The notes below the pieces were generated by a model. The model had not been told where the DNA came from and did not search any database. It saw only the letters and a list, made by a program, of their open reading frames with translations. This document shows positions 36,694-63,181 of a DNA stretch of 64,000 bases, piece after piece. The DNA comes from Sedimentisphaerales bacterium. Its GTDB lineage: Bacteria; Planctomycetota; Phycisphaerae; Sedimentisphaerales; Anaerobacaceae. Where the stretch lies: assembly GCA_963708075.1 (NCBI GenBank), contig OY970194.1, forward strand, positions 4,064,001-4,128,000, given 5' to 3'. Every line of letters starts with the position of its first letter. Position 1 is the stretch's first letter. Both the position numbers and the translations under genes were made by a program.

Positions 36694-36738
36694 ATTATCT
36701 GACTTCTGCTTCCATCTGTCTATAGATTAAAATCAGGG
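36694..36738 (-). promoter_or_regulatory. Sigma70-like promoter of the signalling operon (TAGACA-17-GATAAT) with a degenerate box
   Basis: -35 at 36717-36722, -10 at 36694-36699; paralogous to the boxed promoter at 37278-37322. Confidence 0.6.
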
Positions 36739-36918
36739 CAACTCATTTGATCCATCCGACGACGTGGATGATGGGTTGCCGATTCCCCAAGAACGTGGGA
36801 ACAAGCGCCGCGAGGATCTGGCTCGGCATCCGTCTGGGATGGCCCGAAACCTCACCCGGCCTGTCAACCTGGCCCGGTGACCGGGTCCATTTGTGGGGAG
36901 TACGTCCAATAATTGCAG

Positions 36919-36963
36919 GTAGGGTTATACCCCATAGAGAATAATCGGCCCATGGCGCAATAT
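36919..36963 (+). promoter_or_regulatory. Palindromic box plus promoter
   Basis: GTAGGGTTATACCCCAT (36919-36935), TAGAGA-17-CAATAT. Confidence 0.75.
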
Positions 36964-37065
36964 GTCACGCTGGTCCGGTGGGCCCCAAGACACAATAAGG
37001 ACAACAAGGAAGGCTGGAGAACCAGATGACCATAAAGGAAACCGTGGGCAAGGAGGCTCACTGAT

Positions 37066-37103
37066 CGCTGCCGGCTGGTGCATGGAGGCACCAGTCGGCG
37101 GTG
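37066..37103 (+). ncRNA. Conserved 16-bp RNA hairpin with ATGGAG loop (copy 1)
   Basis: All 16 pairs Watson-Crick or G.U on the + strand; homologues at 37654 and 42714. Confidence 0.55.
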
Positions 37104-37104
37104 C

Positions 37105-37185
37105 GTGGCCCTTGCCCGGGTGTCTTTGCAGTGCTGCCTGATATCGCCGCGACAAGCCGGGCAGTTCACTCTCGGCAAAGCACCC
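37105..37185 (-). pseudogene. Degenerate duplicate of the RsbU_N-like gene 5' end
   Basis: SELPGLSRRYQAALQRH compared with TKLTGLSRRYQAAPQKH; start codon lost. Confidence 0.6.
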
Positions 37186-37277
37186 CGAGTTTACACGCAG
37201 CCGCTCGGCCAGCATCCGTTGTTGTCACGCCACCAGGGATGCTCGACCCTTTGTTAGCGAGCCACGAATCCACTGTC

Positions 37278-37322
37278 ATCGTCCGACGGTCGTGTCCATC
37301 TGTCTATGGGGTAAAACCCCAC
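37278..37322 (-). promoter_or_regulatory. Palindromic box plus promoter
   Basis: GTGGGGTTTTACCCCAT (minus strand, 37306-37322), TAGACA-17-GACGAT. Confidence 0.7.
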
Positions 37323-37500
37323 CTGCTCATTTGTTCCATGTGGCCATGTGGATGAGGGGTCGCCCAATTCGTTGAGACCTCCAGACCAAGTACCACAAAG
37401 GTCTGGCTCAGCGTCCTTCGGGGATCGCCCGACCTGTCCGGCCTGTCGAGCTCTCCTGGCGGCCGGGTCCCCTTCCGGGGAGCGAGGCCAACAATCCCAG

Positions 37501-37546
37501 GTAGGGTTACACCCCATAGATCAAGGACTGACTCACGACGTAGTAT
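37501..37546 (+). promoter_or_regulatory. Palindromic box plus promoter
   Basis: GTAGGGTTACACCCCAT, TAGATC-18-TAGTAT. Confidence 0.78.
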
Positions 37547-37653
37547 CTCTGAAATGACAGGCCGAAGAACGCGGCAACAGAAAGAAGCAAGTGTGACAAG
37601 TGTGAAGGACTGAATGGCCATGCAGGGGGGCAAGAGCAAGGAGGCTCGTCGAT

Positions 37654-37691
37654 CACTTCCGGCTGGCGCACGGATGCGCCAACCGGCAGTG
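37654..37691 (+). promoter_or_regulatory. 5'-UTR hairpin with ACGGAT loop (copy 2)
   Basis: CACTTCCGGCTGGCGC-ACGGAT-GCGCCAACCGGCAGTG, ending 29 nt before the ATG at 37721. Confidence 0.55.
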
Positions 37692-37720
37692 AAACCACAG
37701 CCAATGGAAAGGAGAATCTT

Positions 37721-37924
37721 ATGTTGTGGATGATTGCCGCCCTACTGGTATACCTGTGGCTGCTGGGGCTGGTGAGTAGTTACTTGATCGGAGGGTTCAT
37801 TCACCTCCTGGTGACGCTTGCCGTTGTCATCGTGCTGGTCAAAATCATTCAGGGACGACGACTAGTGTGGTGTAAGAAGCCGTTAGTCTGTCGTATTGAG
37901 GCAAGGAAGCTGGAGGTTCCATGA
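37721..37924 (+). CDS. lmo0937-family small membrane protein (copy 1, C-terminally extended)
   Basis: MLWMIAALLVYLWLLGLVSSYLIGGFIHLL; AGGAG RBS. Confidence 0.8.
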   Translation: MLWMIAALLVYLWLLGLVSSYLIGGFIHLLVTLAVVIVLVKIIQGRRLVWCKKPLVCRIEARKLEVP

Positions 37925-38136
37925 GATCCAAAACCATCATTGCCGGCATACTGATTGTTGTCGGCATCGTGGTGCTTGCTTACTCGGGCATCACTTACAA
38001 GACCAGAGGAAAGCCCGTCGATATCGGCCCACTGCACGTAGAGACCACAAAGAGCCACTTCATTCCCCCGGTCGTCGGAGCGGTCGCGCTGGTCGGCGGC
38101 ATCATGTTGCTCGTCCTGGACGCCAGGAAGGCATGA
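37921..38136 (+). CDS. Small two-TM membrane protein (DUF3185-like, copy 1)
   Basis: GILIVVGIVVLAYSGITY...VDIGPL......IPPVVGAVALVGG. Confidence 0.75.
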   Translation: MRSKTIIAGILIVVGIVVLAYSGITYKTRGKPVDIGPLHVETTKSHFIPPVVGAVALVGGIMLLVLDARKA

Positions 38137-38203
38137 TGGGAGAGACCACAGAACTCTCGGAAATTCCTGAACAATATCATCTTTTTTACGGAAGGAAAAG
38201 AAA

Positions 38204-38611
38204 ATGAAGACTGCAATTACGATCATGATGACATTAGCTTTGGCCGCCATCTCCGGCTGCCAATCGAGCAGCCCCCGAGGCGGCGGCATGACCAAAGACG
38301 TAGGATTCAAGATCGCTGTTCCGACCTTGGGCACGGACGTCAAACAGGGCGAAGTCCGTGCCGTTACCGTCTCCCTGCAAAGGGGCGAGTCTTTCAAGCA
38401 AGACGTGAAGCTGCAAATCCAAGCGTCCAAGGGCATCAGCGTCGAACCGACCGACGTTCTGGTCAAAGCGAGCGAAAGTCCTGATGTACAAGTCCGGCTT
38501 GCAGCGACCAAGGACACTGCCCTCGGTGCATATATTGTCTCTGTGAAGGGGACGCCGAAAACCGGCGAGCCGACCTCGACGGCATTCACGGTGAAGGTTG
38601 TCGCTCCCTAG
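38204..38611 (+). CDS. Lipoprotein with Ig-like beta domain
   Basis: Lipobox ISGC; beta-rich mature region; RBS upstream. Confidence 0.75.
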   Translation: MKTAITIMMTLALAAISGCQSSSPRGGGMTKDVGFKIAVPTLGTDVKQGEVRAVTVSLQRGESFKQDVKLQIQASKGISVEPTDVLVKASESPDVQVRLAATKDTALGAYIVSVKGTPKTGEPTSTAFTVKVVAP

Positions 38612-38716
38612 TCTCCGGGCCTTCCGTGAAAGCATATCTGAACCAACACAATTTCGTGATCCCCTGCTGACGATGGGTATTGGCAACTGAAGAACAGTTG
38701 CTGGTTGTTTGACGGC

Positions 38717-38752
38717 GGGTTCTTAGGTGGGCCCTTGCCCACCTAGGAACCC
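38717..38752. repeat. 16-bp inverted repeat hairpin
   Basis: GGGTTCTTAGGTGGGC-CCTT-GCCCACCTAGGAACCC. Confidence 0.6.
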
Positions 38753-38925
38753 AAATACTCGCGGCAGCATTGATGAACCGAGTGATGGTGATGCACTCCC
38801 TCAGCACGGGTGCGAGCCGGGGGTATAAGACTCACCCAGTTCTCATAATTCTCCGATGACCGCTGCACCATGCGTCTATGGGCGGCTGGCAGTACACATA
38901 GAGTTCTTTTTGAAAGGACGGGAAG

Positions 38926-40957: not shown

Positions 40958-41002
40958 GTAGGGTTACACCCCATAGATAAGGACCGGCACATGGTGTAGG
41001 AA
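40958..41002 (+). promoter_or_regulatory. Palindromic box plus promoter
   Basis: GTAGGGTTACACCCCAT, TAGATA-17-TAGGAA. Confidence 0.72.
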
Positions 41003-41600
41003 TCGCAGACAAGAAAATACAACAACAATCGAAAGAAGAAAGTGCGACGCGTGCGAAGAACAGGAGCGTCAACAAGGGAATGATTCCATTGTTGCAGTAG
41101 AGGTAGCAGCGAGGTGGGCGTGGCAAGGAAAGAGTTGGTCGGCGTCGATCTGATACTTCCGACGGCCGGAGCGGCAGGTCTTGCCGTGGAACCTGTCCGG
41201 AAGAAAGGATCTATCGGGGCAACGGCGAAAGAGGCAATCCCCGTTGTGAATTATGTAATGGCTTCGTCGAGGGTGTTTCTGATGGGCGCGCCAATCGAAG
41301 GCACTGACGAACTGGCCACGGTCGGGGCGCAGAGAACTTCCCATGTGCCGATGGGATTCGAGATATCCCCATGGGCACCCGCGCGATCGTCTTTGTGGCC
41401 ACAGCGCGAGCCCCGCCCTGACGGTCATCGAGAGGAGTGTGTTTGAAGCATTGGAGGCGGAAAGGTCATTCCGGCCGTTGTGCCGGAGAAAAGATATGAT
41501 TGGAGATTAGGATATGAAACGGATTTCACTAGCCATGTTCCACAACTCACGTGGTCACCCGTGCTCATTGAACATAGGGTACTCTAAACGGGGAAGATTG

Positions 41601-42311
41601 ATGAAGACGCTGGTATTAACACTCATGATTGCTGCGTTGGCACTGGTCACCAACACTGCAACGGCAAGTTGGACGATGACCAGCGACGTCGGGACTTGGA
41701 CCGGGACCAACGGTGGTACGAACGTACAAAATCAGACAGTGACCGTTGCCTACGGCAACACGGCGCAAAACCAGGTCCGCTGGGGTGTGCCTTATCCTGG
41801 TTCCGTACCGAATGTCATTGACAACCAGAGTGGGCTCGGTTTCACCGGCAAAGCAGCGCCGGCCCTGACCTTTGAGCTTGGCGATCCCTTCGAAATCGGC
41901 CAGCTCGTACACTTCAACCACGAGATCGGCAACGATGGTTCGCCCACGGAGGCTTATCTGCAGCTCGTGATGAACTTCACCACCCCGGATGCTGTCCTGG
42001 GGACATTCAACTTCACATTTGCGGTCAACGAGACACCAGGACTGGGCGTGGATGACATTATCACCTTTCCCATCTCCACCCCACACGAGTCCGCGGATGT
42101 CGGAGGCACACTGTATACGCTGGAGTTGTTAGGGTTCGGAGACAGCCCCAATGCGCTGGTTAAGGAGTTCGTGTCGGTTGAGAATGGTTTGCCGAACACT
42201 ACTCTGCTTTGGGGAAGAGTCACGCCGACGGTTCCCGCCCCTGGCGCTGTTCTGCTCGGCGGGATAGGTACGGCTCTCGTAGGTTGGCTCAGGCGAAGGC
42301 GGATTGTATAG
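41601..42311 (+). CDS. Choice-of-anchor K-like surface protein with PEP-CTERM-like (VPAPG) sorting signal
   Basis: Signal peptide, VRWG.P, QSGLGF.G, GQLVHFN; C-terminal VPAPGAVLLGGIGTALVGWLRRRR. Confidence 0.82.
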   Translation: MKTLVLTLMIAALALVTNTATASWTMTSDVGTWTGTNGGTNVQNQTVTVAYGNTAQNQVRWGVPYPGSVPNVIDNQSGLGFTGKAAPALTFELGDPFEIGQLVHFNHEIGNDGSPTEAYLQLVMNFTTPDAVLGTFNFTFAVNETPGLGVDDIITFPISTPHESADVGGTLYTLELLGFGDSPNALVKEFVSVENGLPNTTLLWGRVTPTVPAPGAVLLGGIGTALVGWLRRRRIV

Positions 42312-42567
42312 GTAGGTGGGAGTTTGCCTTGAATTCGGCGCAAGCATCTGGATGGTCATGGTGGTCAACCTGATGCAAGGCAGGAGGGGGGAGTCACAAG
42401 GATGTGACGCCTCCACAAGGATGTGACCTCCTCCTGTCGCACCGAGGGACTGAATCGGAATACGGTTGCGATTCTCCCCCATATATGCCAGAGGTTAATC
42501 CAGATCCCATCTGACAACTGCCATCATCTGCCCATTGGGTAAGGCCCGACCCACCCGGTAATCCGAA

Positions 42568-42612
42568 GTAGGGTTACACCCCACAGACAAGGAACTACCC
42601 ACGACGTAGTAT
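42568..42612 (+). promoter_or_regulatory. Palindromic box plus promoter
   Basis: GTAGGGTTACACCCCAC, CAGACA-17-TAGTAT. Confidence 0.8.
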
Positions 42613-42713
42613 CTCTGATAAGGACAGGCCGAAGAACGCGGCAAAAGAAGAATGTGAAGAGCGTGACGAAACAAATGACTATGGAGGTGGGCAAGAGCAG
42701 GGACGCTCGCCGA

Positions 42714-42750
42714 TCGCTGCCGCCTGGTGACGGAGGTACCAGCCGGCAGT
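42714..42750 (+). promoter_or_regulatory. 5'-UTR hairpin with ACGGAGG loop (copy 3)
   Basis: CGCTGCCGCCTGGTG-ACGGAGG-TACCAGCCGGCAGTG, ending 30 nt before the ATG at 42781. Confidence 0.55.
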
Positions 42751-42780
42751 GAAACCATGGCCAACCGAAAGGAGAATCTT

Positions 42781-42930
42781 ATGTTGTGGACGATTGCTGT
42801 CATACTGATAGTTCTGTGGCTGCTGGGGCTGGTGAGCAGTTACACGATGGGAGGATTCATTCACCTCCTGCTGGTGCTTGCCGTTGTCATGGTGCTGGTC
42901 AGGATCATTCAGGGACGACGACTGGTGTAA
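42781..42930 (+). CDS. lmo0937-family small membrane protein (copy 2)
   Basis: MLWTIAVILIVLWLLGLVSSYTMGGFIHLLLVLAVVMVLVRIIQGRR; AGGAG RBS. Confidence 0.88.
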   Translation: MLWTIAVILIVLWLLGLVSSYTMGGFIHLLLVLAVVMVLVRIIQGRRLV

Positions 42931-42975
42931 GAAGCCGTTAGTCTGTCGTAGTGAGGCAAGGAAGCTGGAGGTTCC

Positions 42976-43191
42976 ATGAGACCTAAAACCATCATTGCCG
43001 GCATACTGATCGTTGTCGGCATCGTGGTGCTCGCTTACTCGGGCATCACTTACAAGACCAGAGGAAAGCCCGTCGATATCGGTCCGCTGCACGTAGAGAC
43101 CACAAAGAGCCACTTCATTCCCCCGGTCGTCGGAGCGGTCGCGCTGGTCGGCGGCATCATGCTGCTTGTCCTGGACACCAGGAGGGCATGA
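42976..43191 (+). CDS. Small two-TM membrane protein (DUF3185-like, copy 2)
   Basis: Near-identical to 37921-38136; GGAGG RBS. Confidence 0.78.
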   Translation: MRPKTIIAGILIVVGIVVLAYSGITYKTRGKPVDIGPLHVETTKSHFIPPVVGAVALVGGIMLLVLDTRRA

Positions 43192-43321
43192 TGAGAGAGA
43201 CCATAAAGGAGACGAGCCATGAGTTGGCACTAAGTCAAAGGACATGTGCCGCTAACCTGTCAAGTATCGGCATTGAACCACAACCAACCCACAATCATCA
43301 AGATTCAGATGGAGATGTAAC

Positions 43322-43420
43322 ATGAAATCACAACGGATTTGCAACTGTGTCTTAGTAGCTGTGGCCGCCCTTTTGGCACTTGCGGTTTTTGTCGGCGGCT
43401 GCCATGGCGTTACCTGGTAG
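43322..43420 (+). CDS. Putative 32-aa micro-lipoprotein
   Basis: MKSQRICNCVLVAVAALLALAVFVGGCHGVTW; GGAG RBS; lipobox-like VGGC. Confidence 0.45.
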   Translation: MKSQRICNCVLVAVAALLALAVFVGGCHGVTW

Positions 43421-43462
43421 AGTGTTTTCCGTCGTTCTTGAGAACATCGAAAGGAGTCTATT

Positions 43463-43627
43463 ATGGGATTCATACTACTACTTGTGCTGATCCTGCTTCT
43501 CGTGGGCGGCCTGCCCAGGTGGGGCTACAGCCGTAATTGGGGCTACACCCCCAGCGGCGTCTTGGGGCTGCTACTGATGGTCGTGCTGGTGCTCCTGCTC
43601 GCGGGGTATATCCCCCGCGGCTTCTGA
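43463..43627 (+). CDS. DUF3309-family small membrane protein (copy 1)
   Basis: MGFILLLVLILLLVGGLPRWGYSRNWGYTPSGVLGLLL; AGGAG RBS; too short for the ORF track. Confidence 0.85.
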   Translation: MGFILLLVLILLLVGGLPRWGYSRNWGYTPSGVLGLLLMVVLVLLLAGYIPRGF

Positions 43628-43809
43628 GCCGCCGATCACCGGCACGCCGGCCAATTTGGGGTAAGCGGGAGGTCGGCCCCCCGCCCAAGCCGGCCGAGGA
43701 GCGTCAGAGGACGCGCGAAAGCAAGAACCAGGGTGGATACAAGAATAAAGAGAAGGATAAGAACAGATGAGCCGACTTCGCAAGGCTCTGACTCGTAAAG
43801 GAAGATTCC

Positions 43810-44049
43810 ATGAGTAAGTACACAACTCAGTCGAAAACGACGCAGATGTCCGCAATGCAACAGGGGCAAAGGGCCTCGCATCCCGGGCCGGCTGCTGCCG
43901 CCATGCCTACGCACAAAGACATTGCCAAGCGGGCGTATGAGATTTACGTCGAGAAGGCTTGCCGACAGGGCCAGAGTGAACAGGACTGGCTGCAAGCCGA
44001 ACAGGAGTTGAAGAACCAAGAGAACTGGCTGCACGCTGAACAGAAATGA
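43810..44049 (+). CDS. DUF2934-domain protein (copy 1)
   Basis: IAKRAYEIY...G.SEQDWLQAEQEL. Confidence 0.85.
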   Translation: MSKYTTQSKTTQMSAMQQGQRASHPGPAAAAMPTHKDIAKRAYEIYVEKACRQGQSEQDWLQAEQELKNQENWLHAEQK

Positions 44050-44721: not shown

Positions 44722-44815
44722 CGGATCGTTGCCAGCGGGTACGGAACGTGTCCACTGGCAGCAATTCCAGGCCCATTAACAGGAACATGGTATGCGAAGG
44801 TAGGTGAGGTTCGTC

Positions 44816-45157
44816 ATGGAACGCAAAAGCAGTGAGAACATTGCGGCAGCTTTGAAACTCCTTGAGGAGGCGGCCAAGCAGAAGAAGGACGAGTTGAGGA
44901 CGCTCATGTCTGATAAGTACACAAATCTGCGGAGCCTGATCATGGAGGACGAAGGCAGTCTCATGGAATCGCTGACCACCGCCAAAGACCACGCGGTCGA
45001 GGCGACCACTCATGTCAAGGAGGCCGGCGTCGAGAAGGCCCGTGAAATCGCCCGCGACGTGGACAAGGGCGTGCATCAGAATCCGTGGCCCTACATCGCA
45101 GGATCGGCGGTGGTCGGTGTGCTACTAGGCTACATTCTGGGCGACAGTCGCAAGTAG
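44816..45157 (+). CDS. DUF883/ElaB/YqjD-family protein
   Basis: Helical N-terminus; C-terminal VHQNPWPYIAGSAVVGVLLGYILG tail anchor. Confidence 0.82.
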   Translation: MERKSSENIAAALKLLEEAAKQKKDELRTLMSDKYTNLRSLIMEDEGSLMESLTTAKDHAVEATTHVKEAGVEKAREIARDVDKGVHQNPWPYIAGSAVVGVLLGYILGDSRK

Positions 45158-46054: not shown

Positions 46055-47005
46055 ATGACAAAGGAAGCTGAACACGCAATCCACGTCGAGAGACTGACGA
46101 AACGTTACGGGGATCTGCTGGCAGTCAACGACATATCGTTCACCGTCAGGAAGGGCGAAGTGTTCGCTTTTCTGGGTCCGAACGGCGCCGGCAAGACCAC
46201 TACCGTTGAGATCATCGAGACAATACGCACGCCAACGTCGGGAAAGGTGAGCCTTCTCGATATGGATGTCACAAGAAAGAAGCACAAAATCGTTCGCCGC
46301 ATCGGCGTTCTCCCACAGGGGTTCAGCTCGTTTGACAGGATAACGGTCAGGGAGACCATCCAGTACTACTCGAGACTTTTCTGCCGCAGGGACACCGATA
46401 TCGATGGGCTGATAGAACTCGCGAACCTCACGGACAAAAGCACAGAGCAGTTCAAGAACCTCTCTGGAGGTTTGAAGCAGCGCCTCGGAATTGCAATTGC
46501 GCTCGTGAACAATCCCGAGGTCGTGTTCCTCGACGAGCCGACGACAGGGCTCGATCCCCGCGCAAGGCGTGAGGTGTGGGATGTCCTGCTGGGCCTGAAG
46601 AAGAAGGGAAAGACGGTATTTCTCACCACACACTACATGGAGGAAGCAGAGCTTCTTGCAGACACTGTAGCCATAATCTCCAAGGGAAGTATCGTCGCGA
46701 TGGGCTCTCCCGGGGAGCTTATCGAAAGGAACGCAAACTATCTGGTCCTCACGCTACTGTCCGTCGATGAAAAAGTCTTTGAGATCGTCCAGAAGATGGG
46801 CTTCGAGCCGGCCCATACCAACCACAAGAACATCAAGGTCCGGGTGGAGCACCAGGACGACGTTCGGAGAATATTGAATGGCATCAAGGACATCGGGGCA
46901 TCATTCCTCAGCTTGGACGTTCGCAAACCCAATCTTGAAGAGGTTTTCCTGAAGCTCACCGGTGCCGCACTCCGCGAAGACCCTGCCGAGGAGGTGGCCG
47001 AATGA
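46055..47005 (+). CDS. ABC exporter ATP-binding subunit
   Basis: GPNGAGKTT, LSGGLKQR, LDEPTTGLD, TTHYMEEA. Confidence 0.92.
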   Translation: MTKEAEHAIHVERLTKRYGDLLAVNDISFTVRKGEVFAFLGPNGAGKTTTVEIIETIRTPTSGKVSLLDMDVTRKKHKIVRRIGVLPQGFSSFDRITVRETIQYYSRLFCRRDTDIDGLIELANLTDKSTEQFKNLSGGLKQRLGIAIALVNNPEVVFLDEPTTGLDPRARREVWDVLLGLKKKGKTVFLTTHYMEEAELLADTVAIISKGSIVAMGSPGELIERNANYLVLTLLSVDEKVFEIVQKMGFEPAHTNHKNIKVRVEHQDDVRRILNGIKDIGASFLSLDVRKPNLEEVFLKLTGAALREDPAEEVAE

Positions 47006-50696: not shown

Positions 50697-50741
50697 GTAG
50701 GGTTATACCCCATAGAGTAGGGGCGACCCATGGCGTAGCAT
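50697..50741 (+). promoter_or_regulatory. Palindromic box plus promoter
   Basis: GTAGGGTTATACCCCAT, TAGAGT-17-TAGCAT. Confidence 0.78.
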
Positions 50742-50843: not shown

Positions 50844-54195
<3,352 letters not shown>

Positions 54196-54221
54196 CCCGT
54201 GAAACCCATGAAAGATGTCCC

Positions 54222-54788
54222 ATGAAAGAGGCCATGTGGTGGTTCGCTGCTCTCACGTTGCTGGCCGCGGCAGGCTGTGCCCGAGACCAAACTCGGCTGC
54301 CGTTGACCATCGAGCAAAGCAAGGCCGCGCCGGACGGTGCCCTGGCAGAAACTCGTCCGCTGTTCATCATCGAGCGGAGCAAGAACGCCAACGTCGTGCA
54401 TTACGACGCCCAGCTTACCGCCGACGGCAATCTGGATCCCGAGGAACCGGTGATCGCCTACTATGTCATGCTAGCCGAGGACGGCCGCCGGAAGGAACTC
54501 AATTGGATCGAGAAGAAAATGGCCTACGGCTTCGACATTAGACCGGACCCGTCGGTAGGCGGGTACAAAATGATCATCGTGGCTGCCCCCCAGGGGCCAA
54601 TCACCGTGAAGAAGGAGGGGAACGCCGTCCGTGCCGAGCTGGTCATCGACAGCCACCCGGCTGTTGTCGAGAAGATGTACATCAATGCCTCCGACGGGCT
54701 GCCCTGGCCCAAAGTCCACTATATCGAGCTCTACGGAGTAGATCTGCAAACGGGAGAGAAGCGATTTGAAAAGATCATACCGAAGTAG
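54222..54788 (+). CDS. DUF4833-like lipoprotein
   Basis: Lipobox AAGC; LFIIERSKNANVVHYD, ELNWIEKKMAYG, V.YIELYG.D..TGE. Confidence 0.75.
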   Translation: MKEAMWWFAALTLLAAAGCARDQTRLPLTIEQSKAAPDGALAETRPLFIIERSKNANVVHYDAQLTADGNLDPEEPVIAYYVMLAEDGRRKELNWIEKKMAYGFDIRPDPSVGGYKMIIVAAPQGPITVKKEGNAVRAELVIDSHPAVVEKMYINASDGLPWPKVHYIELYGVDLQTGEKRFEKIIPK

Positions 54789-54819
54789 CCCCCTCGTCGT
54801 GCCACAAAACAGAGGAGAA

Positions 54820-55022
54820 ACGCGGAAGAGATGATTGCGACTTGCGATGTCTTGGTCACTCGTTCTTCATCGACTGCCTTCGTCGGTCTGGCGCTCGGCA
54901 AGGGAACTCACTCCGACTTCGACATGGACGAAATGCGTCGGCTGATGCCGGTTCAGAATGGCTCGGGGGCTTCCAACATCGCGGATATTTGCCGCGGCTT
55001 GATCGAGGAGCGACGGCAATGA
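54820..55022 (+). pseudogene. 3' fragment paralogous to the GT-B-like gene at 49311-50270
   Basis: EEMIATCDVLVTRSSSTAFVGLALGKGTHSDFDMDEMRRL compared with EEMIANCDVLITRFSSTAFVGIALGKETHSDFDMDELRRL. Confidence 0.85.
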
Positions 55023-56146
55023 GCGACCATGTTGTGGTCAGACCGGTGGTTTCGTGGCGGGATCGCAGGCGTTTTCAGCGGCTCGCCTGGTCAATTTATG
55101 CCGGCGACCTCAACTGGGTGCCGCCGATTCTCGCCCAAGAGCGCCAACTCCTGGGCTGGGGACAACATCCCTTCTTTGACAATGCGGAGATCGTAACGCT
55201 GTTGGCGGAGCGAGGTGGCCGGGTGGTGGGTCGGCTGGCGGCGATCGTCAACCACATACATAATAGCAAATACAACGAACGTCGTGGGTTCTTCGGGTTC
55301 TTCGAGTGCGTGAACGATGCAATGGTCGCTCGCTCGTTGTTCGAGGCCGCCCATGCGTGGTTGCGGCAGCGCGGGATGACGGCGGTGCGCGGGCCAGTGA
55401 ATCCGTCGCTCAATTACACCTGTGGATTGCTCGTCGATGGCTTCGATCGGCCCCCTTGCTTCCTGATGACCTACAACCCACCTTACTATGCGGCCCTGGT
55501 GGAATCCTGCGGGTTCGCCAAGTCGCAGGACATGTATGCCTATGAAATGGACATGGGCCGGTTGGCGGCATTGACGGCGCGATACAAGCCCGCGGTGCTG
55601 GCGGCGCTTGAATCGTCCAAACTGGTGTTCCGGCCGTTCGACCCGGGGAAGTATCAGCAGCAGACCGAGACGTACCTCGATATCTACAACCGTTCGCTGG
55701 AAGGCACCTGGGGCTTCACGCCTCTACAGCCGCACGAAGCACGGCACATCGCCGGCGAGCTTCGACAGGTCATCGTACCGGAGTTGGCCGTGTTTGCCGA
55801 GATTGGCGGCCAGCCGATCGGGGCGGTGCTCGCCCTCCTCGACTATAACCAGATCCTCCGCAAGCTCAATGGCCGATTGTTCCCGTTCGGCTTCGTACGC
55901 CTCTTGACCGAACGACGGCACATCACGGCGGCTCGCGTCATGGCAATCAACATGGTGCCCGGCTACCAGAGCGCGGGGCTCGGCATTGTGTTGCTGGACA
56001 ACCTGGTGGGGGCGGTGGCAAAATGGGGCATCGAGCGCTACGAGTTCTCGTGGGTTCTGGAGAGCAATGTCCGTTCCCGCGGCACCCTCGAGCGCGCCGA
56101 GACGAAGATTACCAGCACTTACCGCCTCTATGACAAAGCCTTGTGA
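55019..56146 (+). CDS. GNAT-fold N-acyltransferase, YghO/bacterial ceramide synthase-like
   Basis: IY.GD.NWVPP, HPFF, VGRLAAI, GFFGFFEC, RGPVNPS.N..CGLLVDGF..PP..LM.YNPPYY, E.SWVLESN, YRLY. Confidence 0.82.
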   Translation: MSDHVVVRPVVSWRDRRRFQRLAWSIYAGDLNWVPPILAQERQLLGWGQHPFFDNAEIVTLLAERGGRVVGRLAAIVNHIHNSKYNERRGFFGFFECVNDAMVARSLFEAAHAWLRQRGMTAVRGPVNPSLNYTCGLLVDGFDRPPCFLMTYNPPYYAALVESCGFAKSQDMYAYEMDMGRLAALTARYKPAVLAALESSKLVFRPFDPGKYQQQTETYLDIYNRSLEGTWGFTPLQPHEARHIAGELRQVIVPELAVFAEIGGQPIGAVLALLDYNQILRKLNGRLFPFGFVRLLTERRHITAARVMAINMVPGYQSAGLGIVLLDNLVGAVAKWGIERYEFSWVLESNVRSRGTLERAETKITSTYRLYDKAL

Positions 56147-56423: not shown

Positions 56424-57517
56424 TCATGGCAGCATCCTGCCCGGGTCGCCGGGAGTTCCGAGAACCCCTGGTATAGGAGCAATACGCTCAAAGCCACCCC
56501 GCTTGGCATACCATTGGGCCGTTTCGCGCAGGCGTTCAGCCAGGGCGGCCGCGGGCGACCAGCTCAGGTGTGTGCGAGCTTTCGCGGATGAGCACATCCA
56601 CGACCCGGCCAGGGCTTCAGTCATCTTGTCGCTGTTCACCCAAGCGGGGCGCTGCCGGATCCGCCCTATCGCGTCACCGCAGAGCCCAGCCAGTCGCACC
56701 AGTGGCCCGGGCAGGTGTACTACGACGGTGCACGCTTCTTTCCCAATGCTGTGGCCATTACCTGTCCGAGTTCGGCGTATGTCGGATAGTCATCCGCTGC
56801 CATGAAGTAGATGCCTTGCCCAGGCGATCCATTGGGGTGCAGGCGCTCGCCTTTCTCGGCTGCAAGGAGCAAACCCTCGACCAGGTCGGCTACGTGGATC
56901 AGCGAGAAGCATCGCTCGTCCAGACCCGGCACAACATGGATACCCCAGCGTGCGATCGGCCGGAACATTTTAAGCATGCCCCTGTCACCGGGACCAAAGA
57001 CCATCGGCGGACGTACAATACTGATCGGCACCGCTGTGGCATATCTGGCTGTGGCCTGTTCTCCGGCCAGCTTGCTGCAACCGTAAGCTGAAACAGGCAT
57101 CGGCGCATCGCTTTCTACCCGAGGTCGGCCAACGGCGCAAGGCCCCGCTGCGGCCAGCGAGGACACCACTACTAACACCGGCTTGTCAGTGCAGTCAGCG
57201 CAGGCGGCAGCGACGGATTCGATACCACCTGCGTTCACACGCAGGAAATCGTCTGTCCGCAGCGCCTTCGTCAGCCCGGCCAGGTGGAACACAATACCGG
57301 CCTGCGACACCGCCAGTGCCCGTCCAATGCTGGCCCCATCGGTCACATCGCCAGTGACCAACTGAGCGCCGGCCGACCTCAGATCCTCGATGCACGAGGT
57401 GGCTCGCACCAGACATGACACCCGATCGCCAAGCTCGGTCAGCCGTTGTACCAGGTGCCGCCCGATGAAGCCACTGGCCCCTGTCACCAGCACGGGTTTT
57501 GGAACCCTATTGTTCAT
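56424..57517 (-). CDS. NAD(P)-dependent epimerase/dehydratase-family SDR (CerR candidate), -1 frameshift near 56731
   Basis: TGASGFIG, VFHLAG, VSSLAA, YGCSKLAGE (YxxxK), RPP.VFGP.D; continues into ORF 56424-56699. Confidence 0.85.
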
Positions 57518-57899
57518 AGTCGTATAAGACACCTTTCAAAGGGCGTCAAGTGCTTGGTGTTGCGAGCTTAGTCTGATACCATATCGTCTTGCTGACCACG
57601 AGGCACGGGCCGCGAGGGACCATGAACGTACACCCTCGGGCTCTGGGACAGTCGCACCGGGGTTTAGAGAGAGGCAAAGATGTTGAAGTCTGCTCATGCG
57701 AAGCACTTTAGCCACACTCGTCCATGGGCTTCGGTTCCCCCGACCCCTCGCTCGTCCAGTGCGGCTATGACTCCAATGCATTTGCAGAGCCCGCCCGAAC
57801 CCGCGGGCTTTGTGAAAGCCTCTCCGCCCCATTCCTTGTAAAAAGGTAGCTCGTCGAGAACGGCCGTCATACAACCGGAAAACCACGGACAGATTGATT

Positions 57900-58070: not shown

Positions 58071-58430
58071 TCAACGCGCTGCCAACTTCGCCGGTCCTGA
58101 TCTCACATCGCCGTCAAGACAGGGTTTTTTGGAGGGACATGTGATCGCTTCCAGCGCCCCATCTATCGCTCCGTCCAACCGATCTGCGATCTCGTAGGTG
58201 CCCTCGGTAATCTGACGACGGATGCTCAGCACTTTGCCTCGCCGGATGTGGGGCGAGCATGCGATCCTCTTCAACACCCCCTCCCAAGGCGTGCTACTCA
58301 TATTCTCAAGGATCTGCTCCATCAATCCATCGTCGTTTGGCGAAGCATCACGCCCTTGGTTGTTTCCTGCGTCCTGCGATTTACGGCGACCTGTGGATTG
58401 CAGCCTCGGCATCTCGAATAGTGTTGCCAT
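58071..58430 (-). CDS. FlgM-like (anti-sigma28 C-terminal motif) protein
   Basis: IRRGKVLSIRRQITEGTYEI matches the FlgM R..KV..IK..I..G.Y pattern; GAGG RBS. Confidence 0.62.
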   Translation of the reverse strand: MATLFEMPRLQSTGRRKSQDAGNNQGRDASPNDDGLMEQILENMSSTPWEGVLKRIACSPHIRRGKVLSIRRQITEGTYEIADRLDGAIDGALEAITCPSKKPCLDGDVRSGPAKLAAR

Positions 58431-58564
58431 AATTGCCTCTTAGCTTATCATCCAAATGTGTGGTTCGCGGCCTGATCCCACAATACCTTGTAGCCCATCC
58501 AAATCCGCCCCCTGGGCCCAAAATCAACTCAGCAGCGAGAGTGCAAAGCATAGAACACAGCCAT

Positions 58565-58639
58565 TCTCTATCCTTTTCTCTTTTGGCTTTCTATGGGGTA
58601 TAACCCTACCAGGGACTGTTTTATAGGATGTATCCCCAC
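58565..58639 (-). promoter_or_regulatory. Two palindromic boxes plus promoter
   Basis: Minus strand: GTGGGGATACATCCTAT (58623-58639), GTAGGGTTATACCCCAT (58593-58609), TAGAAA-17-TAGAGA. Confidence 0.72.
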
Positions 58640-59027
58640 CGGGTGAGCGGTCCGGACTCAAAGCCCCGGCCATGACTCTGTCCGCATGACGTGACGAATC
58701 GGCAGGCTTGGCCGTCACTCCATCGCTCATCACGGGCGGCTGTCACTCCAACGCGTCGGTCAGCCAGCGGCGAACCCGTCGCCAATTGAAGACGAGAACC
58801 CCCGCGTTGTCTCGCTGCGTCTCCCTTGCCAAAGAAACGCGGGGCTCTTCGTTGCGCTGAGCAGCATGAAACCCCCGATAGAGAAGAGAACTGACTTCGT
58901 CGCTTTACAGGCAATCACTTCCGGACGGCGGGCAACCCAAGCTCGTTGGGCTTTCGTCAACCTGTCCAGTTCGTCGCACTTTTGCGGCTGGGGGGCCCTT
59001 TTCGGGGAGTGCATCCAACAAGTCCAG

Positions 59028-59072
59028 GTAGGGTTACACCCCACAGACGGGAAACGACCCACGACGTAGTAT
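59028..59072 (+). promoter_or_regulatory. Palindromic box plus promoter
   Basis: GTAGGGTTACACCCCAC, CAGACG-17-TAGTAT. Confidence 0.8.
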
Positions 59073-59148
59073 ATCTGAAAGGATAGGGCGAAGAACGCAG
59101 CAAAGGAACAAAGTGTGAAGCGTGTTATGATTCTTGAAGGAAGATTCC

Positions 59149-59427
59149 ATGAGTAAGTACATGACTCAGTCGAAAACGACGCAGATGTCCGCAATGCAAC
59201 AGGGGCACAAAGCCTCGCATCCCGGGCCGGCTGCTGCTGCCATGCCTACGCACAAAGAAATTGCCAAGCGGGCATATGAGATTTACGTCGAGAGGGATTG
59301 CCGGCAGGGCCAAAGTGAACTGAACTGGCTGCAAGCCGAACAGGAGTTGAAGAACCAAGAGAACTGGCTGCAATCCGGACCAGATATGGAAAACCAAGAC
59401 CAGGTTGGGGACCCTGCGGCCTATTGA
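59149..59427 (+). CDS. DUF2934-domain protein (copy 2)
   Basis: Near-identical to 43810-44049 with a different C-terminus. Confidence 0.85.
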   Translation: MSKYMTQSKTTQMSAMQQGHKASHPGPAAAAMPTHKEIAKRAYEIYVERDCRQGQSELNWLQAEQELKNQENWLQSGPDMENQDQVGDPAAY

Positions 59428-59724: not shown

Positions 59725-59961
59725 ATGGCACGCATGCTTCTCGCGCTCGTTCTGATCGTGGCCGTTGTCGCCGGCCTGGGCTTCTACATGGGGTGGTTCC
59801 ATTTCTCGTCGGGCAGCGACAGCAACAGTGCGCACGTCACTATGTCGATGGACAAAGGCCAAATCCAAAAGGACAAGGACAAAGCGGTGGACAAGGTGCA
59901 AGACCTGGGACAACAAGCGAAGGACAAGGTCGCAACGACGACCCCGAAAGGTCAGGAATAG
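59725..59961 (+). CDS. Small membrane-anchored hydrophilic protein
   Basis: TM (LLALVLIVAVVAGLGFYMGWF) plus Lys/Asp-rich tail. Confidence 0.7.
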   Translation: MARMLLALVLIVAVVAGLGFYMGWFHFSSGSDSNSAHVTMSMDKGQIQKDKDKAVDKVQDLGQQAKDKVATTTPKGQE

Positions 59962-60094
59962 GCCGCCTCCCTCGTGTTCCGTTTGCAGTACGATCCGCTC
60001 ACCAACAACCTCATGGGGGAAGTACGGATCCGTCGGGACGCCATGGTCGCCGCTTGGCCAAAGTGGCGGAACTCGAAAGCCGGGAGGCACCCTA

Positions 60095-60190
60095 ATGAAG
60101 AACAATCCTCTGACGATATTGGGAACGCTGAGCCAATCCATCCGGCTGGACTACATCCGGCGAGATCTGACCGCCAGCGGCGGGCTTCCA
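60095..60190 (+). pseudogene. Transaldolase N-terminal remnant
   Basis: MKNNPLTILGTLSQSIRLDYIRRDL resembles the Tal start (..GQSIWLD.I.R.L); GGAGG RBS. Confidence 0.65.
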
Positions 60191-60191
60191 C

Positions 60192-60524
60192 CAAAAGCGA
60201 CCGTTTACCCGGGCTCAGTTTCGGCACTTCATGTTCGCGCAATCGAAACCTTACCCCGAGATGATCGCGCTGGTCGCTCAGCTCAAGGCCCGGCACGGGC
60301 TGAAGGTCGCCGTGGTCAGCAACGAAGGGCGCGAACTGAATGCGTATCGGATTCGCAAGTTCAAACTGAACGGGTTTGTGGATTCCTTTATTTCCTCCTG
60401 CTTCGTCCAAGTCGCGGAAGGTCTGGGGATTCGAAGCATTCTTCACACGGATTACAGGTCCACGTGCGCCAAACTGGCTTCGTTCGGACTACAGAATGAC
60501 GAAGGAGTCAGCCATGCCCGTTGA
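60192..60524 (+). pseudogene. HAD-family phosphatase remnant with internal deletion
   Basis: FMFAQSKPYPEMI, VVSNEGRELN, FISSCFV then directly VAEGLGI; the KP motif region and the N-terminus are missing. Confidence 0.65.
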
Positions 60525-61485
60525 ATTCAAGGACTACTACGACGTCCTCGGTGTGGCTCGAGACGCGAGCGGCGAGGAAATCAAGAAGGCATTCCGAAAG
60601 CTCGCCCACAAGTATCACCCTGACGTTGCCAAAGATAAGATCACGGGCGAGGCAAAGTTCAAGGAAATCAACGAGGCCAACGAAGTCCTCAGCGACCCGG
60701 AGAAACGGCGAAAGTATGATCAGTTGGGAGCAAACTGGAACCATCCGGAACGGCAGCCGCCGCCACCGCGGGGGGGATTCGGTGGAGGTTACGAAGAGGC
60801 TTCGGAAGTCCATTTCGATGGCACGGGCTTCAGCGATTTCTTCGAGCAGTTCTTCGGCAGTCGCGGTCGTCCATCCGGTGGTTTCGGCCAAACACGGGGG
60901 GATGTCACGGGAGGAGGGACCGTCGCCCAGCGCGGCCAGGATATTGAGGCCGACATCCTGGTGACGCTGGACGAGATCCTGCATGGTTCGACGCGCACGA
61001 TCCAACTGCAGCGTGCCGATCCACGCACCGGGCAATCGGTCAAGCAGACTCTGCGGGTGAAAATCCCACCCGGCGTTCGGGAAACGCAGCTCATCCGTCT
61101 CGCGGGCAAAGGCCAGGAAGGCATTGGCGGAGGCGACTCGGGAAACCTGTATTTGAGGGTGAAATTCGCCCAGCACCCCGATTTCCGTGTGCGCGGCGCC
61201 GACCTGTATTACGATTTGGATCTGGCCCCGTGGGAAGCGGTGCTGGGTACTACCGTCCACATCCCCACTGTGGATGGAACGGTGTCCTTGAAAATCCCGG
61301 CGGGCACCATGGCTGAACGGCAATTACGTTTACGCGGGAAAGGTTTGCCCACGAGCAACGGAGCACGGGGCGATCTGTATGCCGTCGTGTCCATCCAGGT
61401 CCCGGTGCATCTGACGCCGGAACAAAAAGTCCTCTGGGAACAGTTGGCCACAAGATCGACCTTCAACCCGAGGCAACTCTCATGA
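60514..61485 (+). CDS. cbpA: DnaJ class B chaperone (CbpA-like)
   Basis: [23 protein letters not shown], no Zn finger, APWEAVLG. Confidence 0.9.
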
Positions 61486-61819
61486 GCAAGCGATTTGTTC
61501 CGGACAGCCCCCCCACCCCTGGCGATGGAGTTGTTTCAGCCGCAGCCAAACGTTTTGTACAACCTCGATGCGACTGCACATCTCGCGGGTGTCCCACGCC
61601 GTTCCATTCTGATCTATTGTCGCGCCGGCCTTGTACGACCTGTCGTTCAACCGCCGTATGGGGTGATGGGATTCACGGAAGAGGCGATTTATACCATGCG
61701 GCGAATCGAGGGCTTGCGAACCGTTTACGGCCTCGATTTAGCCTGGATCAAAACCATGTTCGATCTGCTCGACGAGGTGGAGCGCCTGCGCCGAGTTGCG
61801 CTTTTTGCGCAGCCATTGA
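61482..61819 (+). CDS. CbpM/MerR-like modulator, apparent frameshifts near 61510 and 61790
   Basis: ATGA overlap with cbpA; YC..GLV.P, RRIE.LR..YG.DL; corrected end [15 protein letters not shown]. Confidence 0.65.
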
Positions 61820-61849
61820 CAAGGCGAACATACACGAGGCTTATACTCT

Positions 61850-63130
61850 ATGGCGACGAAACTCGACCAAACCTGTGTCTTGGCGATCAACGGCGGCTCG
61901 TCGAGCATCAGGTTCGCTCTGTACGAGGTGGGTGAGGCGCTGGAGCAAAGGCTTCATGGGAAGGTTGACCGCATCGGCCTGAGCGGGACGAATCTAACGT
62001 TTCATGACCCGGATGGCAAGCCGCAGGCCAGTTGCAGCCTCGCCGCCGCCGATCACAAATCGGCCGCGAGTTTCCTGATTGATTGGTTTGAAGGGCAGAA
62101 GGCCTTCGCTTCGGTCAAGGCTGTGGGACACCGAGTGGTGCATGGCATGACGCATTCCGAGCCGGAACGGGTCACGCCGGGGTTGATTGATGAATTGCAT
62201 CGTATCACGCCGTATGACCCGGATCATTTGCCCCGCGAGATTGAACTGATTGAGGCGTTCCGCCAGCGTCATCCGAAACTGCCCCAGGTGGCCTGTTTTG
62301 ACACGGCGTTTCATCACACCATGCCGCGTGTCGCCAAGTTGCTGCCGATTCCGCGACGCTTCGACACAAAAGGAGTCAAGCGCTACGGTTTTCACGGTTT
62401 GTCCTATGCCTATCTGATGGAAGAACTCGCGCGCCTCGGCGACCCGGCGGCAACGACTGGCCGTGTGATCCTCGCGCATCTCGGCAATGGCGCCAGCCTG
62501 GCTGCCGTGCGTGACGGCAAAAGCATCGATACCAGCATGGGCTTCACGCCCACGGCAGGATTGGTGATGAGCACCCGCTCCGGCGATTTGGATCCTGGCC
62601 TGGCGCCGTATCTGGCGCGAACTGAGCAGATGACCACAGAACAGTTTTACGAAATGGTGAACCACGAGTCCGGGCTGCTCGGCGTTTCGGAGACCAGTTC
62701 CGACATGCGGGACCTGCTCGCGCGGGAAGCCGATGACGTGCGTGCGGCGGAAGCCGTGGCGATGTTCTGCTACCAGGCGAAGAAATGGATCGGCTCCTTC
62801 GCCGCCGCGCTCGGTGGATTGGACACGCTCGTCTTCGCGGGAGGTATCGGCGAAAATGCGCCACTCGTCCGCGCTCGCATTTGTGAAGGGTTGAGCTTCC
62901 TCGGCATTGAACTGAATGAGTCGCGCAACGCGGAAACTGCGGGGGTGATTTCCACGGACGCCAGCCGGGTTGCGGTCCGCGTCATTCGCACGGACGAAGA
63001 ACTGATGATCGCCCGCTCGGCGTGCCGTGTATTCCGACTTGGCATGGCCAGTGAAAGAGGGAATTCCGACCATGCAACGAAATACATCTGTCGGCTGGAT
63101 CCGTTGTCAGAGGGCGGTGTGCCCCCATAA
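61850..63130 (+). CDS. ackA: Acetate kinase (copy 2)
   Basis: INGGSSS, GHRVVHG, CFDTAFH, YGFHGLSY, HLGNGAS, DTSMGFTP, FAGGIGEN, TDEELMIA. Confidence 0.93.
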   Translation: MATKLDQTCVLAINGGSSSIRFALYEVGEALEQRLHGKVDRIGLSGTNLTFHDPDGKPQASCSLAAADHKSAASFLIDWFEGQKAFASVKAVGHRVVHGMTHSEPERVTPGLIDELHRITPYDPDHLPREIELIEAFRQRHPKLPQVACFDTAFHHTMPRVAKLLPIPRRFDTKGVKRYGFHGLSYAYLMEELARLGDPAATTGRVILAHLGNGASLAAVRDGKSIDTSMGFTPTAGLVMSTRSGDLDPGLAPYLARTEQMTTEQFYEMVNHESGLLGVSETSSDMRDLLAREADDVRAAEAVAMFCYQAKKWIGSFAAALGGLDTLVFAGGIGENAPLVRARICEGLSFLGIELNESRNAETAGVISTDASRVAVRVIRTDEELMIARSACRVFRLGMASERGNSDHATKYICRLDPLSEGGVPP

Positions 63131-63136
63131 TCCACG

Positions 63137-63181
63137 GTAGGTGTATACCCCATAACGAAGCCGCCCCGGCCGGCGCAATAT
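63137..63181 (+). promoter_or_regulatory. Palindromic box plus promoter
   Basis: GTAGGTGTATACCCCAT, TAACGA-17-CAATAT. Confidence 0.68.

Follow-up and report, generated by a model that had tools for sequence, protein, structure and literature searches.

A 17-bp palindrome abutting fixed-spacing promoters as the likely site of a NarL-type regulator of general-stress-type genes in a Sedimentisphaerales bacterium and other phyla

Introduction

General stress responses are the textbook case of sigma-factor control (RpoS, SigB, EcfG), and the CsbD, YflT, Dps, DUF883/ElaB-like, OsmY-like BON and OsmC families belong to the RpoS and SigB regulons. Another type of stress regulation is found in DevR, whose Dev boxes, G-rich/C-rich palindromes, adjoin the -35 at some tens of genes for survival under stress; DevR also controls its own operon. 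A palindrome touching the -35 represents the geometry of a class II activator, while NarL binds TACYYMT heptamers in a 7-2-7 layout. Here, we analyzed a 64,000-nucleotide (nt) stretch of the genome of a Sedimentisphaerales bacterium (GCA_963708075.1), positions 4,064,001-4,128,000 of a single 7.52-Mb contig (OY970194.1), 60.4% G+C, which we call the window. It contains repeated copies of a 17-bp palindrome, called the box below, that abuts promoter-like sequences and lies near the gene of a NarL/FixJ-type response regulator (31493-32170, minus strand).

DosRS governs a regulon of about 50 genes in Mycobacterium tuberculosis, and regulons have been predicted from DosR motifs, as stated in passages of PMC10034137. 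Histidine kinases with an RsbU N-terminal domain are noted in passages of PMC12143880 and PMC9237108, and the abstract of PMC4574943 describes the methylation of RsbK by RsbM in Bacillus cereus. Our literature searches (motif strings; stress regulation in Planctomycetes, Phycisphaerae, Verrucomicrobia and Acidobacteria; RsbU_N/HisKA_3) returned no description of the present motif or system, with the limit that motifs given only in figures or supplements would be missed. The literature searched on RsbU-domain histidine kinases yielded no regulator site or regulon, and that searched for Verrucomicrobiota, Acidobacteriota, Planctomycetota and relatives yielded no described general-stress regulator.

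Results

The box is a rare, oriented repeat with a promoter-like layout

The initial annotation of this DNA listed about ten intergenic copies of a palindrome RTRGGG-N5-CCCCAY fused to a promoter. In the 64-kb window, the GTAGGGTTAYACCCCAY box occurs at eight exact-pattern sites and one site with two mismatches, against an expectation of 0.12. The nine matches to RTRGGG-N5-CCCCAY correspond to eight sites (36919+, 37306, 37501+, 40958+, 42568+, 50697+, 58593- and 59028+), as 37306 is matched on both strands, while 100 shuffles of the window gave a mean of 0.12 matches and a maximum of 2. Together with the site at 63137+, which was recovered at two mismatches, this count bears out the approximate number of copies, and all sites indeed fall between long open reading frames (ORFs). 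The box is an imperfect dyad, GTAGGGT-TAC-ACCCCAT, in a 7-3-7 layout with the half-sites GTAGGGT and ATGGGGT. Its upstream half is conserved as strongly as its downstream half, both in the genus and in the sites from other phyla.

A scan of this genome and its relatives with a position matrix had been proposed as a check. To avoid circularity, we trained the matrix on 53 sites from relatives only and then scanned the 7.52-Mb genome. This gave 17 sites above 14 bits with a minimum of 23.9 bits (63137+, the weakest), and nothing fell in the gap between 14 and 23.9. Nine sites lie in the window, five at 68.6-81.3 kb (the second cluster), two at 2.06 Mb and one at 5.13 Mb. All 17 are oriented toward a gene and are followed by a TAnnnT -10-like hexamer 23-24 nt past the box. 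The box is a real, rare, oriented repeat tied to a promoter-like layout.

At the window promoters, the last base of the box opens a T/C-AGA-n-A hexamer (TAGACA, CAGACA type). The -10-like hexamer starts 23 nt past the box at 8 of the 11 window sites and 24 nt past it at 37501, which makes the spacer 17 nt and once 18 nt, in agreement with the annotated spacing; the sites at 58593 and 58623 are ambiguous. For the genus, we used 69 sites from this genome and its genus relatives. A TANNNT hexamer starts at +22 to +24 in 51 of these sites versus 5 on the mirror side of the dyad, and AGA directly follows the box in 46 versus none on the mirror side. The -10 start lies 23-24 nt past the box at 50 of the 69 genus sites and at 57 of 95 sites from other phyla, which come from loci chosen by regulator homology (see below).

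These data bear on the possibility that the box is a repetitive extragenic palindromic (REP) or miniature inverted-repeat transposable element (MITE)-like repeat without a regulatory role. Its near-invariant sequence and the duplication of some copies along with their flanks would suit such an element. However, a REP or MITE is recognized by many copies without fixed orientation or spacing, whereas only 17 copies are present in 7.5 Mb, all of them gene-facing, the strict -10 spacing is missing on the mirror side, and the box is kept in other phyla amid unrelated flanks. We regard this explanation as extremely improbable.

Outside the genus, the conserved columns of the 95 sites (78 loci, L039-L116) are a G at -1 (75 sites), the box itself, a G at +2 (81), a C at +3 (66), an A at +24 (83) and a T at +28 (81), with TANNNT starting at +23 in 53 sites. 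Since the bases past the box are AGC or GGC there instead of AGA, the TTGACA-like hexamer is local to the genus. The TAGACA-like "-35" of the initial annotation therefore holds in this genus but not as a general feature, T-A/G-G-C following the box elsewhere. As the last base of the box is also the first of a weak -35-like T-A/G-G element, and TAnnnT follows at 23 nt, the centre of the box is placed at about -44 from the predicted start. This position fits a class II activator-dependent promoter, with a centre near -41 to -44 and a fixed distance to the -10.

The same regulator might also bind the box as a repressor, with the operator over the -35 blocking polymerase until stress. An operator overlapping the -35 is a common, textbook repressor layout, and the genus hexamer (TAGACA, CAGACA), which shares 4-5 of 6 positions with TTGACA, might suffice for activator-independent transcription given its 17-nt spacer and fair -10. 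However, the sites outside the genus carry AGC or GGC after the box and no good -35, yet hold the box-to-(-10) distance, which is typical of activator-dependent promoters. In addition, kinase-partnered regulators of the NarL family usually activate when phosphorylated, and the box before the kinase-regulator operon fits positive feedback. Activation is therefore the reading we prefer, and repression seems unlikely.

About half of the genus box promoters are preceded by an upstream element, ..GGAGTACRTCC-AATAAT.., which ends 11 or 16 nt before the box and often follows a short GC-rich hairpin-like stretch. It is present at 36880-36918, 37462-37500, 58610-58639 and 58990-59027 in the window, and at many of the relatives' sites. 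The extra box annotated upstream of 58593, at 58623-58639, corresponds to this element and has five mismatches to the consensus; an element does exist there, but it is probably not a second full box. We also rejected the upstream element as a second operator because its spacing to the box is not rigid. It might serve as a contact for the polymerase alpha subunit or for a second factor, or might be a piece of terminator copied along with the promoter.

The box accompanies a NarL-type regulator and its kinases

The candidate box-binding protein (31493-32170, minus strand) has an N-terminal receiver (Pfam Response_reg, 2.3e-27), with the DD and LMD motifs conserved in the full-length alignment to VraR, and a C-terminal GerE helix-turn-helix that scores above the Pfam cut-off (1.9e-19). 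Its closest solved structures include VraR (the best, 1.6e-42), NarL, DesR and DevR (sixth, 2.6e-28), and none of the NCBIfam equivalogs (NarL, NarP, UhpA, MctR and others) reaches its cut-off. Directly upstream lies the likely cognate kinase, a sensor histidine kinase with PAS and HisKA_3 domains in Pfam (32203-33591, minus strand). The first gene of the operon encodes a CheB-CheR-PAS_10 fusion by Pfam (33603-36348, minus strand) and is frameshifted near 35172. The fusion forms a single ORF of 948-956 amino acids (aa) in relatives but two overlapping ORFs here, tblastn placing aa 6-433 in frame -3 and aa 434-948 in frame -1, which may reflect a sequencing error or a recent pseudogene.

This operon is headed by a degenerate box (36722-36738) with a TAGACA/GATAAT promoter (36694-36738, minus strand). 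Although the box itself has decayed, its -35-like and -10-like hexamers and a 180-nt leader align with those at 37306- and at genome 68619-. The genome carries a second copy of the regulator at 66643-67317, 92% identical to the first, among only about seven full-length NarL-type regulators. There, a variant box at genome 68619(-) heads the kinase and regulator genes, and a divergent box at 68653(+) faces an MlaE gene. Both box clusters have one of these two regulators next to them, each encoded in an operon that starts with a variant of the box. The kinases of the two operons are 71% identical in the catalytic core and differ in the sensor part, that of the second cluster being of RsbU_N type. 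A HisKA_3 plus HATPase_c kinase stands directly upstream of the regulator in both paralogous operons and also in other phyla. Wherever its start is visible in the genus, the kinase-regulator or CheBR operon has the variant form of the box (TTTYA centre), and in many cases a second, divergent box lies about 20 bp from it.

Pfam and NCBIfam revealed no further DNA-binding domain in either cluster of this genome, and the scanned ORFs of either cluster and of the first 30 kb of the window contain no sigma factor. Separately, remnants of mobile elements (a HTH_32 transposase-like gene, a DnaB-like helicase and an rve_3 integrase fragment) occupy 23704-29184, between sugar-metabolism genes and the regulator operon.

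The lack of a sigma gene matters for the view that the box plus hexamer is the promoter of an alternative sigma factor travelling with stress genes, the two-component system being merely a member of the regulon. Published abstracts describe stress regulons elsewhere as run by RpoS, SigB or EcfG, FlgM-like anti-sigma domains are frequent among the targets, and a box precedes an extracytoplasmic function (ECF) sigma gene in one genus relative (G005) and one sigma-70-family gene in another phylum (L096). However, a dyad with equally conserved halves points to a dimeric protein and away from sigma region 4, and the -10 is a common TAnnnT hexamer. The clusters share no conserved sigma gene, and we detected no sigma domain in the scanned window ORFs. 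Moreover, this genome's ortholog of the G005 sigma gene (77%) has no box closer than 57 kb, and box control of an ECF sigma was accordingly rejected as a conserved feature. We consider sigma-factor control of these promoters very unlikely, and return to the regulator.

Boxes and regulator co-occur within the genus

The genus set comprised 24 genomes, namely this one (G000) and 23 others. The exact 15-mer is present in 8 of the 23, and with a looser dyad pattern true boxes were found in 10 of them (G004, G005, G007, G008, G009, G012, G013, G015, G016 and G019). Orthologs of the regulator (81-85%) occur in G007, G009, G013, G015 and G019, all five being box carriers, and none with close similarity was found in the 13 genus genomes without true boxes. 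PGI was dropped as a relatedness marker because of its patchy distribution, and RecA was used instead. By pairwise identity, with no tree built, RecA is 87-92% identical to that of G000 in carriers and non-carriers alike; closeness to G000 therefore does not explain the split. The YflT target gene is likewise confined to box carriers in the genus. In G016 and G012, the box-headed operon runs off the contig end, so that the absence of the regulator cannot be judged there; it is only a guess that a gene in two near-identical copies tends to break assemblies.

Ten matches to the loose dyad in G021 were rejected as boxes since they represent a distinct palindrome. A perfect 17-bp palindrome, GTGGGGT-AAG-ACCCCAC, has eight copies in G021, eight in G007 and none in this genome, and was also seen in G005, G019 and G002 (e.g., L034 3280, L035 2759).

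Box, regulator and spacing recur in other phyla

In 400 other genomes of the class, the exact 15-mer was matched once. The idea of a genus-private system was nevertheless abandoned after a regulator-based search of public genomes found the box in other phyla. For this comparison, 80 loci (1.01 Mb in total) were picked from public genomes solely by regulator homology (63-85% identity). Their taxon labels are mostly Verrucomicrobiota, with Kiritimatiellota (including a Pontiella metagenome-assembled genome), Acidobacteriota/Terriglobia, Omnitrophota and a Sedimentisphaerales metagenome-assembled genome; the closest labelled regulator loci are from Sedimentisphaerales and Pirellulales. With up to 2 mismatches allowed, 95 boxes (31 exact) were found in 39 of the 80 loci, and none with the reversed pattern as a control. 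The box is conserved between phyla, while the flanks are unrelated. The variant box heads an operon of RsbU_N/HisKA_3 kinase and regulator in at least eight loci (L042, L043, L047, L048, L059, L075, L089 and L107), and the layout of CheB-CheR-PAS gene, PAS kinase and regulator recurs in Sedimentisphaerales and Pontiella loci. The recognition helix (KTVEKHR.HLM.KL) and the characteristic C-terminal tail of the regulator are at least 90% conserved across all 80 loci, whether or not a box lies in the flank.

Five genomes of other lineages hold 4-8 boxes each, nearly all on the contig of the regulator. As a prospective test, we took a further sample of 100 genomes from the phylum of one verrucomicrobial carrier. 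Seven had the box and four had at least 3 boxes, with one match overall for the reversed control. All four genomes with at least 3 boxes carry the regulator (58-69%) on a box-bearing contig, and four of five large box-less genomes of the sample lack it. The system is patchy within phyla, with 1 carrier among the 400 other genomes of this class and 7 among the 100 of the verrucomicrobial sample. In several other phyla, the combination of regulator, box, spacing and kinds of targets recurs patchily and is grouped closely around the regulator gene.

Two further arrangements were observed at the kinase genes of these loci. In Acidobacteriota, a KaiC-KaiB-PAS/HisKA_3 operon is convergent with the regulator gene (L048 8861-12564, L096 9747-13409), which suggests a timer input into the regulator. 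In several loci of Verrucomicrobiota and Kiritimatiellota, the full kinase is immediately preceded by the gene of a 230-250 aa protein that has RsbU_N and HisKA_3 and lacks an ATPase domain; such a short gene lies directly behind the variant box in L041 (6123-6857), L043 (6151-6843), L047 (6145-6843), L075 (6165-6872) and L107 (6074-6832).

Weighing the link between box and regulator

We connect the box with the regulator because the regulator gene is the last of an operon that starts from the degenerate box promoter at 36722, because its 92% paralog has the identical arrangement at the second box cluster, and because genus orthologs of 81-85% occur in box-carrying genomes only. Furthermore, loci chosen by regulator homology alone carry the box with the -10 spacing, even before the kinase-regulator operon, and the four genomes chosen for at least 3 boxes all hold the regulator on a box-bearing contig. 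Site and factor thus co-occur across genomes, with G005, G004, G008 and G480 as exceptions. In our judgment, the box is likely the site of the phosphorylated 31493-32170 regulator and of its 92% paralog, which would activate the promoters that the box abuts. The assignment of the box to the adjacent NarL-type regulator, made in the initial annotation from this DNA, thereby gains support from the operon, paralog, genus and cross-phylum associations, but the regulon is not private to this genome.

Several points weigh against this interpretation. The case as a whole is one of association between sequences, and activation rather than repression is read only from the geometry and the weak -35. Since the loci were chosen by regulator, another regulator that is always co-inherited with it could not be excluded from those loci alone. 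No box with up to 2 mismatches lies in the fetched flank of 41 of the 80 regulator loci, and the box-less genome G480 encodes a relative of the regulator (61%) that has no box within 10 kb of it. The RsbU_N match of the second-cluster kinase reaches 22.6 bits, below the Pfam cut-off of 25.5. The box varies much less than regulator sites typically do, and the shared flanks and kinase remnants (see below) imply that its similarity within this genome reflects in part common descent and not selection.

Finally, neither regulator nor kinase orthologs were found in G005, which has about ten boxes and is 86% complete, nor in G004 and G008, with two boxes each and 98% complete. These three box-carrying genomes, along with the many target proteins of no known function, speak for a different DNA-binding protein, encoded elsewhere, that binds the box. 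Against such a protein, the boxes track the regulator across phyla and cluster around it, and neither cluster showed a second DNA-binding domain in Pfam or NCBIfam. We judge a different binder quite unlikely and continue with the 31493-32170 regulator as the candidate.

Box promoters precede general-stress families

Across this genome, the genes preceded by a box encode DUF5670, DUF2934, DUF883, DUF202-like, CsbD, Dps/ferritin, YflT, Band 7 and FlgM-like proteins, together with a PEP-CTERM surface protein and a lipid-synthesis fusion enzyme with DUF4833 and GNAT. Three DUF5670 modules lie behind boxes in the window and one at the second cluster. In other phyla, the box precedes BON-domain (OsmY-like) genes in at least eight loci and further genes for CsbD, YflT, DUF883, DUF3185, OsmC, entericidin, MlaA, PRC-barrel/BON, ice-binding-like proteins, glycogen-binding modules, large glycosyltransferases and GroEL. 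Judged by family membership, the predicted targets here and in other phyla include hallmark general-stress families (CsbD, YflT, Dps, DUF883, BON, OsmC and others), which supports the earlier description of a general-stress-like regulon.

In the window, the promoter at 37501-37546 (plus strand), with the 18-nt spacer, precedes a DUF5670 small membrane protein (37721-37924) and small ORFs. Near these, a 246-aa minus-strand ORF without a family (37849-38589) overlaps the plus-strand ORFs 37921-38136 and 38204-38611. The latter two would prolong the box-driven DUF5670 operon; RNA contigs cover the region, and either strand may be the coding one. The promoter at 40958-41002 (plus strand) precedes a 110-aa protein (41114-41446) and a PEP-CTERM/choice-of-anchor K protein (41514-42311), and that at 42568-42612 (plus strand) precedes a string of small stress proteins, namely DUF5670 (42727-42930), DUF202-like, DUF2934 (43810-44049) and DUF883 (44804-45157). 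Downstream on the same strand, an ATP-binding cassette (ABC) transporter and a radical-SAM/SPASM gene extend to about 50270; an ABC-2 permease in this stretch is apparently split, as 47002-47322 and 47342-48115 (plus strand) match successive parts of one Pfam model, possibly by a second frameshift or a stop.

Among assembled contigs of four RNA-library runs, contigs from three studies cover the two DUF5670 operons, at 37693-38685 and 42658-43650. They show only that relatives of the DUF5670-operon genes occur in RNA libraries, and are silent on starts, strand, level and induction; likewise, the sparse coverage of the box-containing bins (37362-37692 and 42327-42657) is not evidence.

The promoter at 50697-50741 (plus strand) precedes a fusion of fatty-acyl-AMP ligase, acyl carrier protein and oxoamine synthase (50844-53984), followed by DUF4833 (54192-54788) and GNAT (54842-56146) genes. 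The 1046-aa fusion product combines a fatty-acyl-AMP ligase, a carrier domain and an oxoamine synthase resembling serine palmitoyltransferase, and the genes from 50844 to 56146 are a candidate pathway for amino-lipids or sphingoid bases that would be induced by stress through the box. On the minus strand, the region 58563-58639, with the box at 58593-58609 and the degenerate upstream element at 58623-58639, precedes genes for a FlgM-like protein (58071-58430), a 127-aa protein and a NAD-dependent epimerase (56720-57532); orthologous promoters in relatives likewise precede FlgM-domain proteins. The promoter at 59028-59072 (plus strand) serves a DUF2934 protein (59134-59427), which is followed on the same strand by uncharacterised proteins, DnaJ (60376-61485) and acetate kinase (61850-63130). 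This is one of two acetate kinase genes in the window; it ends the gene string behind box 59028, and the other (13031-14260) adjoins a phosphoketolase. Lastly, the box with two mismatches and a CAATAT hexamer at 63137-63181 (plus strand) precedes an uncharacterised protein (63254-63715 or 63184-63783).

Promoter modules have been duplicated

The region at 36.4-37.6 kb is a patchwork of duplicated promoter modules. Two remnants of about 30 codons from the 5' end of an RsbU_N-type kinase gene (36433-36627 and 36925-37215, both minus strand) each lie behind a copy of the kinase's own box promoter, the second behind the copy with a TTTTA centre at 37278-37322 (minus strand). On the plus strand, a box with TAGAGA and CAATAT (36919-36963) has no clear gene after it, and its leader is homologous to that of the DUF5670-Dps operon in the second cluster. 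With 36919(+), the predicted transcription is convergent. The 50697 promoter and the YflT promoter at genome 77586 have paralogous upstream flanks. Judging from these shared sequences, the regulon seems to have grown partly by the copying of promoter-bearing segments.

The leader shared by 36722-, 37306- and 68619- was rejected as an RNA element or leader peptide, as it represents the 5' untranslated region and first codons of the RsbU_N-type kinase gene. An Rfam scan of the whole window at gathering thresholds gave no match, so the conserved leaders are not explained by a known RNA family.

Discussion

In kind, the system would be an ordinary two-component activator regulon of the DosR sort. 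It shares with DosR/DevR of M. tuberculosis a NarL-family regulator that is served by more than one HisKA_3 kinase (DosS and DosT there), a G/C-rich palindrome at the -35, and control of its own operon. The regulator would thus work like DosR, but by comparison it is not a member of DosR/DevR: it is no ortholog, DevR being the sixth-best solved match (2.6e-28) against 1.6e-42 for VraR, and the half-sites and the 7-3-7 spacing differ. So do the targets, which are osmotic and general-stress genes instead of hypoxia genes, and the inputs, which are PAS, RsbU_N-like and CheB/CheR- or KaiBC-linked instead of GAF-haem; the distribution is patchy over several phyla. The site resembles those of NarL/LuxR-type proteins in that a GerE helix-turn-helix would face inverted heptamers about one helical turn apart, but it has a 3-bp spacer and its half-sites point opposite to the NarL heptamer.

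With the RpoS, SigB and EcfG responses, the system shares multiple sensory inputs and targets of the CsbD, YflT, Dps, DUF883/ElaB-like, OsmY-like BON and OsmC types, and with the SigB pathway it has the RsbU N-terminal domain in common. However, its output would come from a response regulator that binds DNA at promoters with an ordinary -10, instead of from a sigma factor. The pairing of a CheR-type methyltransferase with a stress kinase in B. cereus RsbK-RsbM-RsbY has a counterpart in the CheB-CheR-PAS gene directly ahead of the PAS kinase, whereas the B. cereus pathway ends in a phosphatase that acts on the partner switching of SigB. That the CheB-CheR-PAS protein methylates the PAS kinase is only a guess.

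In the mechanism that we propose, the regulator would receive its phosphate from two or more sensor kinases that differ in their input domains, among them the PAS/HisKA_3 kinase encoded behind the CheB-CheR-PAS protein in the window and the RsbU_N-like/HisKA_3 kinase from the second cluster. As a dimer, the phosphorylated regulator would occupy both heptamer half-sites, with the dyad centred near -44, and recruit RNA polymerase with the housekeeping sigma factor at an ordinary -10. The 17 promoters of this genome would in this way drive general-stress-type genes, and since the kinase-regulator operons have their own variant box with the TTTYA centre, the system would amplify itself.

A wider proposal, plausible but tentative, is that of a "stress island" that is complete in itself and moves horizontally. 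In it, OsmY-, CsbD-, YflT- and Dps-type genes would be activated through a near-invariant 17-bp operator by a two-component regulator instead of a sigma factor, with RsbU_N-type, CheB/CheR-linked PAS and KaiBC-linked kinases integrated by the system. Compared between phyla, the identities of regulator and RecA are 69/64% for Terriglobia, 74/60% for Kiritimatiellota and 69/60% for Pontiella (G432, G433 and G434). A regulator at 69-74% against RecA at 60-64% fits transfer of the whole module, as it does unusually strong constraint; these identities do not tell the two apart.

In scope, this is a candidate for a cross-phylum, sharply defined and apparently undescribed control of general stress in poorly studied phyla, whose members abound in soil, sediment and fresh water and have seldom been cultured. 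The window itself contributes a planctomycete carrier with two copies of the regulator, 17 genome sites and visible promoter duplication. The finding singles out one protein and one site. As the box is sharply defined, the regulon may be read straight from any genome or metagenome, and its genes would form a marker set for the stress state in metatranscriptomes. The patchy clusters, together with the high conservation of regulator and site, raise the question of whether whole regulons including their promoters can move between phyla, and the duplicated promoter modules seen here show a route by which such a regulon gains members.

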